Origin: Podarcis liolepis
Lineage: Eukaryota
Length of the DNA stretch: 64,000 nt
Direction: 5' to 3' (one strand)
Assembly: GCA_965112155.1 (NCBI GenBank)
Contig: OZ218098.1
Shown: positions 24,001-30,000 of the stretch, piece after piece
Position numbering within the stretch: position 1 is the first letter of the stretch
Layout: each line of letters begins with the position of its first letter
Program-made: the position numbers and the translations under genes
The notes under the pieces: model-generated
The model's database searches: none
Told to the model about the DNA's origin: nothing
What the model saw: only the letters and a program-made list of their open reading frames with translations

Positions 24001-27000
24001 TTACAAAGGGGCCCAAGTCAGACATAGTTTTGCAGAAAATCCAATCATTGTTTTGCAGAGCGTATAAACAAGTGCATTTAGAACAGAGATGGGCCAGTCC
24101 TTCAGCATCAAGAACCACAATGGAAGTTCTATGAGGCAGCAAAGCTTGCATGCATACTTTCTGTAAAAATTTAACACAGGCACCTACAAAGGAGTTCAAT
24201 GGCAAGTTATGTTGCAGGCATACATGGAATTTATTCTGTAGCAATGGCAGGTGCCATGCCTCTTTCACTCTTTGGCTTGGCTGGATTTTAGAATCAATTT
24301 GAAATCCTGGCACATCAGAAATGTGGGATATGTTGCCCTTTTGCCTACAGAGTGACCCAGTCAACTGGTGCAGCCAAGTGATCTACTAGTAATCCCTCCA
24401 AATCTTAAAAGCCAAGAGACACCCTCTTTTTTAAAAAAAAAACAAGGTGAAGGATCGTGTGATTTGAGGACACCTAGTTGATGACTGAGGTTTGTTTTAC
24501 ACCATAATCTTTTAAATTCCGCCCCAGCCCCCCAAGATTTAAGAATGAAAATTCATAGAACCTGCATTTCTGAAAATTCAGCCATAAACATGTTTACAAA
24601 AGCAACTCTAAATCAAAAGCTGGAATTGGCCTTCCAGCCGCCTGCTGCTACATTTAAGGTGCAGAATTAAATGACCAGCATTAAAAAATCTTTATAGTGT
24701 TGGCCCATCTCTGCTCATACTCAAGGAACAAGCTACTTCAGTGATGAAATCATCAATACCAAGTCAACTGAGCTGGTCGCTCTCATTCATAAACAGCCTT
24801 GAAATATGAGCCAATACTATAGCATGACCCAAACCCATGCAAATTACTATTGTCAAGGCCTATTTCAACAGCAAATACACAACCACGCATTAGCAGGGTG
24901 ATGAAGTTGAAGTTGTGGTTTTCAGGCAAGCAAACGAAACAAACGTTCTTGGGCCATGTGCATTTCACACAACAGCTTACCCATAAGCCAACAAGTTGTG
25001 CCCATCTCTTTCTGCTTCCACAATGTATCAGAACACTAAGAAAAACCACATATGGCCTCAGCCCAAGGAGCAGTCACATCAATGTAAAGACGACAATTTG
25101 GGGGCAACTTGATAATTCTGAATAAAATAAGGTCATGGTGAAGATTTTTGTAGGCAACTAGAAATATAGATGGTCTCAGAAATCACATGAGTTGAAAAAC
25201 AATTGCTTTGAGCCTCACTTGCCTTGCCTTCACTTTTAACTTGAAGAAAGAAAAGAATAGTGGGCTACTTAGACTCAGCAACAATACACTTAATACATTG
25301 CTCAGGAGCACAGCATGTGGGAAAAGTGGGGAAAATCACCCCTGAAACTGCTATTAGCCACAGGAGGAAAGTGTTCACTGGCGTGAGCGCGCGCACACAC
25401 ACACACACAAATTCCTCACATGCCCACAGCAGTTTGCGGAGAGACATGACGCTATTGCCTGCCCCCCCACCCCCGCAACCACACACTACTATTTACGTTT
25501 TAAAAAGGTACATGACATGCATTCATACATTTCAGCTGGTATCTAGTTGGCCTTAAAGGTAGACAGGTGGAAAGAGAGAACAAAAGGGACAATCAGTTAG
25601 CTGAGAAGCCTCAAGGGGCTGGTAAATGTACAGCAATTTTCTGTAAGTCTGTCCTAGTTGCAAGGAATGTTTTGAGCAAAATTGATATTGCTAATAGCAA
25701 GGGTCAATGTTGCTCAAGAAAGTGTGGAGGGGGAAGTATTTCAAAATGTGTGCATATTCCAAAAGCTATCAGTATTCTTCCGCTCTAGAAATGTGAAAAC
25801 CACTGGAATTCTTACCCAGAACTTTTGGCACCAGAAGGCAGACTGTACTTCTTCAAAACAGATCCTGGAAGCAGAAAATAGAAGGAAAGAAATACAATAA
25901 AAATACTAACCAGGGCTGCAATTTCTTTTAGATTTAGGGACGCTGGCTATAGAAAATTAAAAATTTAAAAGCCACCCTTCCATCAATTTCTAGTAAAATA
26001 TATGATACAAGGTGGCAATATGTTTTCCCTCTGCGGCAAATGGGGGAAGCATTTAAGTTCCATGTCTTGCGTGTATGTGTGTTTTGCTGTTTATATATCA
26101 AGCCACAACGGTAGTAACGGATGAGCCATTTGGTGAGGTGTGCTTTTCATCCAGTGAAACAGGAGTCCAAAACTGAGTCCCATATACAAAACAAAAAGCT
26201 GTCTTACTCTTCACTATAATTTCTCCACATATACGAAGGGATAACTTCACCAAGCTGTGAAATGTCCATTACCATTTCTAAAAATTACTAATTACTTTTC
26301 AATAGTGCATTTATATTTACTTCCAAAAGTAGTCCAGTTTGACTTAAGCTCACCTATCTAAATTTGTCACCTTTTATTTCTCTCCATAAAGACAAAAAAA
26401 TGTTTTATACAAGAGTCAAGATATGAGGAATGTATTATTAACTGTATGTTTAGCACCATCTACTGGACATGGGCAAGATTATCCCAAGCCAACATAACTA
26501 AATGGTAAATACGCCCCCCCCCCTTTTTTGGCAGAACAGTACTGTAGTATGAACTGACCTAGGAAGCCTGAGCAAAAGAAGCTTCCATAAATAATAATAT
26601 CTTATTCAAGCACAAAATAAATAAAAAAGCACAGTGGTAAAGAATGAGCTATGAATGCCTGAAGAAGTATCTGAAGAAGTGTGCATGCACACGAAAGCTC
26701 ATACCAAGAACTAACTTAGTTGGTCTTTAAGGTGCTACTGGAAGGAATTTTTTTATTTTGACTATGAATGCCTGCAGCTCAAATCTCACCTGCACTAGGT
26801 GATCTCACCAGGAAGCCATAGGCAAGCCACTACAGCCTTACCCAGGCCTCCTTCTCACCTGATGTGGGGCAGGGCAGAGATGTACCAGTTAGTTCTGCAT
26901 TCTCTATAGTATCTCCGGGGTTCTAAATTACGTGGAGAGCCTTCATGAGTAAAGCATTCACCCTCCAATGTGCAAAGGCTTGCAAGCTTATCACAGGCAT

Positions 27001-30000
27001 GCAGTGGAGAAGCCAATGATAGTTAGCATATGCCCACACTCCCCCTCATCGCCCCCTCAAGAAGACCTGAAAATATCATGATAATATCATGATAATAACA
27101 CTGACCTACCTGATAGGGTTATTGTTAAGAATTACTGAGATAATCAGAATGAACCACTTTGAACACTCTAAGGTGCTGCATCTGGATGGTTTATTATTAC
27201 ACAAATAAGCCACACACAAAACATGTACAGAAACCTTAGTATTAGTGTTATAAATATTTGCAAAGAAAAGCAAAACAGATACTGCTGAAACAGGCCAGAC
27301 TGGAGGAGGAAGAGGATCAGGCCAATCATCCAGTCCTGCTACTCAACAGAAGGCCACACCATTAGGAACTGGGGTCATCTGCACTCACAGCAGCTAAACA
27401 TAGCCTTAAAGTGGATCCCCAGCATTCCACAAGCTCTGTTCTTAGTGGTAGCCATTGCAGAGAGCTGATACTATCAATGTGGAAATGACTTTCGCTTTGG
27501 TGACTATGCTCTCATTCTTCTTGGAGGGGAAGGCACAGGAATAGCCAGCGTTTCATTTTCTGCCTTACTAAAAGCCTTATCATTTTAATAAGCTTTTCCT
27601 GCTTATTTTCAATCTACTTCTCCCTTCATTTGCTACCAGGGTAAAGCATGCTATACATAACATGCAACAGAATGGAAAGACCCTTACCTTCCACTGTTAA
27701 TTCTACTGTCACCTGACGAACACCACCAGCATTCCGGGCCTCACACGTGTATGGCCCACCATCTTCCTCCTGCACCCCTTTTATAATTAAGCTGAAAAGC
27801 CCTCGAATGCTACGATCCACTACACAGCGCTCTCCCTCTGTCAGAAGTTGCCCATTCTTGTACCATGTGACTTGGGGTTCTGGGATGCCTCTGACCTAGA
27901 AAGATTGGGTGCAGGAAGATTGGGGATGGTGTGGGGAGAGTGAGAAGGGGGGGTGGGAGAGAGAAACAAACACAGAAGGTGACTTTATCTGGAAGAAATG
28001 CAGAACACTTCATAAGCCAGTGGAAAGTATTTTCTAAAGCCATATCTGTTAAACACATACAAACTGTTTTGAGCCAAATGGCAAAAACCTGAAGAAAAAG
28101 AAACGAAACTATTGGGTGCATCAAGCTGTTAAAACTAGCAATGTTGCTCCAGCAGGCAGCTACCCAGACAAAGCTTTTTTCTGTCTTTTGAAATTTTAAA
28201 GCCAGAAATGAGAAATTCTGAGAAGCACAATCATGAGCCAAAATTATTAGACCATATTCTACTGTCAAACGGCTGTCTAGACTAACAGATTTATTGTAGC
28301 ATGACATTTGCAGGCCTCATTATCAGATGCATTCACTATGAGAGGCATTTAGAAGAAGCAATGTTCATCAGCCTCTTTAGAAAGGGTCAAATACCACCCA
28401 TGGCAAAATAGACCTGGTTGTGTTTTTTGAGTGTTTAGTGTGCATGCGTAACACTGTGTGTGTGCAAAATTTGGTTAACATTTTATCACACATAAAAGCT
28501 GAACTTTACCCAAAATGAATTTCACGAATATCCAAAAGTAGCTATTTCTCCCAATTCTGGGGAGCAAACACCTGAAGAAGCACCTATTTCCATACCAACC
28601 TGTCTATGAATTAAGATCTTCTGCTGAGGGTCTTCTCCAGGTGTTGCCTTTTATCTAAGCTACATTACTCAGTCACAGAGAAGACTTTTTCTGCGGTTGC
28701 ACTCTAGTTACAGAATGCCCTCCTTAAAGAGAGTGCTTGATTTACATTTTGTTTTGCACGAAGCAAAAAACATGTTGATTCATTCAGACATTTAAAAAAT
28801 GTTGTTATTTCTATTTCTGCCTTGAATGAGCTTTATTTTCTGTTTTATTTCAGTCCATATTATGATATACATTTTGAGTGTTACACTTCCTTAAAATCCA
28901 AATAGGATACAAGACAGTACATAAGTATTTTATACAAAATAATAAACCCAACATTTACATTCCGAATGTCAACATTCCGAATTTCAAATATTCACTGGAC
29001 CATATATTTCATTCCAACAGAATGAATCAAGAGGAGTGCCTAGCATTCTTAACTAGAGCTGAAAACTGTAAATTTAGTTAAGCAATCAGTAAGGCTGGAA
29101 GTTAATGGAACATCTGATTTTTAATGCGCTTTTTCTCCTGCATGTTGCTATTCAATTTCTAAACTGCAGAAATGGGAAGATGTGGAACTGTCACCAGCAA
29201 GACCATGCAAAGTTACCTACTGACCTATTGACCAGTGCCAATGGGTCATCATGGCCTTTTTATCAAGCAATTCTTCAACCAGTGGATTTAGCCTGGGAAA
29301 TGATACAAGCTTATCACATGTAGTCCAGGAAATGATATAAACTTTTCACATATAGTCCATCGCACTGAATGCATTTACACAGTTATTTTGAGCTACGACA
29401 TAAACAGGATAAAAAAATTATCCACCAGGTGGTGTCCTTGGCAGTTACAAAGTTCTCACAAAGTAACAAAGACCAACACCAATTAACAATATGTTGTTCC
29501 CCACAAATATGTTGTGTGTGTTTTAATTTCATTTATTGTAAAGAAAACTGAAAAGCACATACAAAATCAACTGGAAGGAGGAGTCAAAAAAAGGGTTTTA
29601 GGGTAGTCCATGGTAGAAAACAGCTAACATGGGAATGCATCTGTAAATGAGGATGCAGTACATTTGCAGCATGAGCAGTGATCCTCATGGAGAAGTTTCC
29701 ACAGAATGTTAAACTCCAAGGACAAGCATAACAATACAATGTCCAGCTGCAGTCTTAGCTATTTCCTTCTGCAACTAGGGGGAAATACTATACTATAACA
29801 ATAATCTTTGTGAAGACTGGCAAACATTCCTCACACCATAGGAAGGGTGGAGCTGACCTACAAAGATCTGGTAATCCACTAGAAAGTAACAACCCAGAAT
29901 TTAAGAATCACTGTCCTCTCCTCTGCTAATTTACTAATGAGAAATTTAGCTTCCTGATGTTCACACAAGCAATCATGCAGTTTATCATCATCTGGTGTAA

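Follow-up and report, generated by a model that had tools for sequence, protein, structure and literature searches.

The window, by which we mean the whole 64,000-nucleotide stretch of Podarcis liolepis DNA analysed here, carries on its plus strand a short insert with a minimal type I hammerhead motif, lying within an intron of a gene encoded on the minus strand (Table 1). Exons for Ig domains are found on the minus strand on either side of the insert, which has a splice donor on one side (near 27687) and on the other a 49-nt exon that is predicted (25864-25816). The antisense-intronic position of the motif given in the original prediction is thus confirmed. The name attached there to the host gene, MYLK, is modestly supported as a candidate: one piece of a later exon has smooth-muscle MYLK as its top PDB match (E 7.5e-4), and another host exon gave generic Ig matches. 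No RNA record covering the window locus is listed. The insert brings an AATAAA hexamer to the host pre-mRNA strand (26752-26757, minus), and its addition to this AT-rich intron is probably harmless.

Table 1. Features of the insert and its surroundings, in window coordinates
Feature	Position	Strand	Remarks
Host intron, Ig-domain gene	25865..27686	-	Predicted edges; insert lies inside in antisense
Left target-site duplication, 13 bp	26649..26661	+	Empty site skips 113 = 100 + 13 bases
Re-copy of the element's own first bases	26659..26666	+	Without counterpart in the full-length copy; same junction at 36 other loci
PLE pseudo-LTR leader	26667..26766	+	98/100 identical to both pseudo-LTRs of full-length copy L091
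Minimal type I hammerhead motif	26667-26704	+	Read from sequence, descriptor scan; predicted cut 26700/26701
Hammerhead stem I	26667-70 / 26701-04	+	4 bp
Hammerhead CUGANGA box	26671-77	+	
Hammerhead extra base before stem II	26678	+	
Hammerhead stem II	26679-83 / 26688-92	+	5 bp, 4-nt loop
Stem II plus loop	26679..26692	+	Perfect 14-nt palindrome
Hammerhead GAAA	26693-96	+	
Hammerhead C17	26700	+	Preceded by palindromic 15.1-16.1
Right target-site duplication, 13 bp	26762..26774	+	
ATG opening the 910-aa ORF in the full-length element	26764..26766	+	Shared with the right duplication here

The insert is bounded by direct repeats of 13 bp, 113 apart, which leaves 100 bp between them. Contigs of runs X4, X3 and X7 each join 26651 to 26765, skipping 113 bases, so that the site is empty in all three of the runs other than the likely source sample, X1; X4 carries the same species label as X1, and X3 and X7 carry other labels. 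This identifies the 13-bp repeats as a target duplication and shows the insertion to be recent. Both the positions of the repeats and the suggestion of a young copy, for which empty sites in related animals were the proposed evidence, hold good. A 3-base stretch that X4, X3 and X7 have at window position 26599, 50 bp away from the insertion, is lacking in the window.

Between the repeats lies the leader of a Penelope-like element (PLE) pseudo-LTR (pLTR), which begins 3 nt past the predicted start of transcription and ends with the ORF's start codon. At its left end a 10-mer is doubled (26659-68 and 26671-80), at exactly the coordinates first reported. The doubling had been read as an overlap with the target and a sign of microhomology-guided integration, and this part of the claim falls: a target origin for the doubled 10-mer is ruled out by the 36 other identical loci and by the CTG that precedes it, which is also present in 25 of 30 fetched doubled-10-mer loci with unrelated flanks. 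Of 460 candidates, a set selected for the duplication, 40 were scored, and 37 of these (the window included) are 100% identical over 26662-26766. Compared across these loci, the doubled 10-mer reads as an element-made slip at the 5′ end, of which just 3 nt overlap the target, and the re-copied bases themselves are likely to record a 12-nt slip-back by the RT at the 5′ end of the RNA. Real microhomology does exist at both junctions of the window copy, namely 5 nt at the 3′ junction (26762-26766) and 3 nt at the 5′ junction, where the last 3 nt of the left duplication also match the re-copied element end. At two of the 30 fetched loci (L013 and L029) roughly the first 12 nt of the element are re-copied several times by slip-back, with 4 and 6 repeats of a hexamer just upstream of the match, which recalls realignment of the telomerase type.

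In the first 38 nt of the leader, CUGANGA, GAAA and UH follow one another in the type I order, together with stems I and II, and the extra base before stem II, the G10.1-C11.1 pair and the palindromic 15.2/16.2 without loop III agree with the consensus of minimal hammerhead ribozymes (min-HHRs). All core nucleotides are intact in the window copy because the insertion is young. On sequence reading, the 4-bp stem I, 5-bp stem II and palindromic stem III lie just where they had been placed. A type I descriptor scan of the 64-kb window returned this motif as its single match, compared with 0.01 loose and 0 strict matches per window in simulated windows (n=100, second-order Markov), and a search of 25500-28000 with Rfam covariance models gave no hammerhead family match at E<=10. 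Its folding energy is ordinary against shuffles (z 0.30 for 126 nt, -0.89 for 46 nt), and both this and the lack of an Rfam match are to be expected of a motif this small. Nearest-neighbour energies, which ignore core contacts, were -11.1 for a double hammerhead, -6.0 for each of two monomers and -30.6 for an antiparallel stem II duplex; in a model that leaves such contacts out, the double hammerhead is not favoured.

The insert belongs to a very large family. In its own genome the exact 35-nt hammerhead core occurs 11,366 times (reversed control 0), a looser hammerhead pattern 14,668 times (control 3) and the 23-mer starting at the cut site 16,280 times, and longer copies extend upstream into the end of a GIY-YIG ORF. 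One full-length copy, L091, has the structure pLTR, 910-aa ORF, pLTR, with two copies of the leader flanking the open ORF. The ORF contains an RVT_1 domain (E 3e-12) and, at its C terminus, a GIY-YIG domain (E 3e-5), with DKG at residue 317, a CX4CxxC linker at 770-778 and two Cys between GIY and YIG at 808-824. One ORF that encodes RT and, at its C terminus, GIY-YIG and that is linked to the leader is the structure expected of an EN+ PLE, as are the pLTRs in partial tandem, the inverted 5′ arm, the optional 30-40-bp tail and the short target-site duplication (TSD). The diagnostics of Neptune and Nematis are also present, namely DKG, a CX2-5CxxC linker before GIY-YIG and a Cys pair inside it; the linker is given as a mark of these two clades in the available text of PMC8557442. 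As an observation on individual loci, L091:1104-7752 combines a full-length partial tandem with an inverted arm, its repeated parts being 100% identical, its tandem seamless and its single 910-aa ORF open. L092:2972-6344 is a long 5′-truncated copy inside another long LINE-like ORF (judged by eye to have an endonuclease-like start and an RT-like continuation), and this insertion creates an in-frame 757-aa chimeric reading frame.

We consider it very probable that an autonomous Neptune/Nematis-type PLE gave rise to the insert as a short, young copy of its hammerhead-bearing leader, made by probable target-primed reverse transcription (TPRT) from near the ORF start codon with probable run-off at the RNA 5′ end. 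Such a copy is supported by the identity to the full-length element, by the duplicated target and the empty site, by the copy number and by the way 5′ and 3′ ends pile up. The anticipated tie to an RT/GIY-YIG element is borne out by the L091 ORF between its leader copies.

The ends of copies were tabulated for the first 100 core-bearing copies listed (overall, ∼150 arms were parsed, mostly in the first 5.5 Mb of one contig). The first point to note is that 5′ ends pile up around 26667, with 53 at -5 to +3, 6 at -6 to -45 and 41 lying more than 45 nt further upstream. Relative to the ATG, 3′ ends form two clusters, 49 inner (-12 to +2) and 41 with a tail of ∼30 nt (+26 to +38), with 0 between and 10 shorter. 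A 100-bp boundary shared among copies, as a tiny non-autonomous family would have, is not found in this sample, and the copies are pieces of an autonomous element with variable ends. The two 3′ clusters match the two internal RT start sites which, for an anole PLE in vitro, define the tail, both target strands being cleaved and extended (PMC11167929, in its available part). At the other end, an initiator-like A at -3 is preceded by a TATA box 30 nt upstream, and from these motifs transcription is predicted to start near -3; a similar TATA/start layout has been noted in rotifer pLTRs (PMC3846280), and Penelope transcription begins inside the pLTR (PMC2377424). Duplications of 10-16 bp accompany 79 arms among the first 100 listed, equivalent to 64 distinct sites, 42 of them 12-13 bp. 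Targets are AT-rich (TSD G+C 0.31), and the target/element overlap at the 3′ junction averages 1.73 nt over 60 anchored junctions, compared with 0.82 +/- 0.14 in 300 shuffles. In the window there is one arm alone, which belongs to the inner class and extends to the predicted start; this is a minority form, since 12 of 53 short arms are without an inverted partner.

Insertion of ribozyme-cleaved RNA was considered and rejected. No arm starts at +31 to +34, the cut site, in the 100 sampled copies, and 1 of 156 arms starts at +31 to +36 in a downstream-anchored set (63 at -5 to +3 and 13 at +37 to +56), a set of loci chosen for other motifs from which solo copies starting past +34 would escape. 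As almost no arm has its start there, the template was probably uncut RNA.

A different origin of the short copies would be stalling of the RT at the folded ribozyme of a multi-unit read-through RNA, with 26667 then marking the fold and not the RNA end. The pile-up does coincide with the 5′ strand of stem I, stalling there would give a similar pile-up, multi-copy transcripts have been proposed (PMC11167929) and L091 holds a seamless partial tandem. However, the RT would by then have passed the 3′ strand of stem I and stem II, the upstream edge of the pile-up (-3 to -5) equals TATA+30, transcription of Penelope starts within its pLTR (PMC2377424), and re-copying is concentrated at the 26667 end, being seen in 7 of 53 short arms but 1 of 41 long arms in a sample unselected for duplication. 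Taking these points together, we think stalling unlikely, and we return to run-off at the RNA 5′ end.

With run-off, the insertion may have proceeded as follows. The GIY-YIG endonuclease would have cut the target with a stagger of 12-13 nt, and one 3′ end would have paired with the RNA over at most 5 nt, in the inner one of its two internal regions of RT start. The RT would then have copied ∼100 nt to the RNA 5′ end and, after slipping back by 12 nt, copied 8 nt a second time, after which the end would have joined the other target strand over 3 nt.

Copies also occur as head-to-head pairs, and these are informative about priming. Among 32 pairs, 28 combine an inner and a tailed arm, 2 a shorter and a tailed arm and 2 have two tailed arms, so that 30 of 32 have one tailed and one untailed arm (binomial p 2e-7). 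A second set has one tail in 15 of 17 pairs, one of the misses being a composite locus paired by the outermost-arm rule. Where scored, the arms of a pair share one target duplication. Pair loci include L045, L053, L097, L099, L107, L120, L121, L125, L128 and L129 (G000 C1, first 4.7 Mb). The one tailed, one untailed pattern suggests that each of the two nicked strands of the target primes a cDNA of its own. The fold-back of a single sense-templated cDNA predicts that the tailed arm is always complete; as the tailed arm is the shortened one in 9 of 12 informative pairs (counted by hand; no significant preference, p 0.15), such a fold-back cannot account for these pairs, whereas two separately primed cDNAs can produce them. 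At one locus (L149, G000:C1:38778-38853) two arms, both starting at +12, are joined exactly at the palindromic stem II.

We tentatively suggest, as a possibility somewhat short of even, a twin-priming scheme in which the two nicked target strands each prime a cDNA, one at the inner and the other at the outer RT start site, each cDNA runs to the RNA 5′ end and the two are joined head to head. Joining would often be through the palindromic stem II of the ribozyme, or after telomerase-like slip-back re-copying. Short copies such as the window insert would be abortive strong-stop products, and a jump from the 5′ end to the 3′ leader copy, its end possibly defined by the hammerhead, would regenerate a promoter-bearing pLTR. 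If true, twin priming would account at once for three features: arms that are inverted, a tail on one side and the regeneration of pLTRs. The one-sided tail has been described (PMC3846280, PMC8557442), and inversion has been explained by self-priming on an antisense template (PMC3846280). In the available portions of these sources, the formation of PLE inverted repeats and tails is called undefined (PMC8557442) and no obvious mechanism was seen for pLTR regeneration (PMC2377424). We found no proposal of twin priming for PLEs in the literature searched, whose scope did not extend to Arkhipova 2006 and Evgen'ev and Arkhipova 2005.

Amplification of the 100-bp unit as tandem or circular RNA, by a separate tiny non-autonomous family or a non-LTR retrozyme, is in our judgement very improbable. 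About half of the copies are equally short, there are two head-to-tail short-leader dimers (L144 and L147) whose second unit starts at the predicted transcription start, and retrozymes have been argued to come from PLE pLTRs (bioRxiv 10.64898/2026.07.22.740005). Against this, no boundary is fixed, as 5′ ends run on continuously upstream as far as the GIY-YIG ORF, with a bimodal distribution of 3′ ends, and the sequence is 98% identical to the autonomous pLTR. In addition, the window has one copy, and the preprint, in its available part, defines retrozymes by at least two tandem units, each with a hammerhead. At the window locus this reading is largely refuted, and a short copy of an autonomous PLE leader stays the preferred one.

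The ribozyme itself varies little. Among the first 100 pattern matches listed, 80 share one sequence and the 20 variants include no compensatory change, so there is no covariation within the genome; between the family and the min-HHR of the painted turtle, each of stems I and II has one pair changed on both sides (compared by eye, against one published sequence). One core variant is common, C17 to U, at 9-30% of depth in four runs. The UH rule of hammerheads allows U at position 17. Reads from many dispersed element copies are present in RNA runs of a related organism; of those placed on the element in these fragmented libraries of another organism, 83-90% run into unrelated flanks and the ORF start is barely covered, so that they are uninformative on transcription start or cleavage. 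The same libraries have no pile-up of read ends at the cut site. Published tests, in the part of PMC4209133 available, found that min-HHR monomers do not cleave, and the anole hammerhead required the element's protein and was dispensable for insertion in vitro (PMC11167929). The ribozyme probably serves the full-length RNA, either in dimeric form or helped by protein, in the way published for other PLEs.

The window copy, promoterless and single in the window, is probably inert where it was inserted. The original idea of action in an antisense transcript is unsupported, and a functional ribozyme at the host locus is very improbable: its core nucleotides are intact and RNA of a related organism contains reads from many dispersed copies, but the insertion is absent in another animal of the same species label and so gives no sign of conservation, the copy lacks the element's TATA box and has no partner copy in the 64 kb, published min-HHR monomers fail to cleave (PMC4209133) and the anole ribozyme required the element's protein (PMC11167929).

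The kind of motif found here is already described, and the insert is one of more than 11,000 near-identical copies. A single insertion is of little weight; the family is useful, being very young, with an intact-looking ORF and polymorphic insertions, and its end statistics lead to sharp predictions that can be addressed by an existing type of in vitro assay. The min-HHRs that metazoan PLEs carry in their pseudo-LTRs (Cervera and de la Pena 2014, PMC4209133) share with ours the type I order, the extra base, G10.1-C11.1 and palindromic 15.2/16.2 without loop III, and are likewise mostly dispersed single copies. Among the rows compared, part of the supplement, the closest motif is that of the painted turtle and the Podarcis family sequence is absent. 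The present motif differs in being nearly invariant in its genome and in having stem II plus loop perfectly palindromic. The non-LTR retrozymes (bioRxiv 10.64898/2026.07.22.740005), as far as described in the part available, share a short non-coding unit, a type I hammerhead and kinship with PLE pLTRs; they are tandem arrays, whereas the window insert occurs singly, has a TSD and shows variable ends.

The parent element resembles the Neptune/Nematis EN+ PLEs (Craig et al. 2021, PMC8557442) in its single ORF with RT then C-terminal GIY-YIG, DKG, CX2-5CxxC linker, pLTRs, inverted 5′ arm and 30-40-bp tail at one end. In contrast to these full elements the window holds the leader alone, and our placement, to Neptune or Nematis, is by diagnostics. 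With the green anole element Poseidon_Ac (Frangieh et al. 2024, PMC11167929) the family appears to have in common two internal RT start sites that define the tail, a pLTR hammerhead and AT-rich targets. Poseidon_Ac belongs to a different clade, the linker Zn-finger being absent in Penelope/Poseidon according to the available text. The two also differ in layout: the ORF starts 63 nt past the cut site here and inside stem II in Poseidon_Ac, and the RT start regions flank the ATG here and lie ∼111-118 nt into the ORF in Poseidon_Ac.
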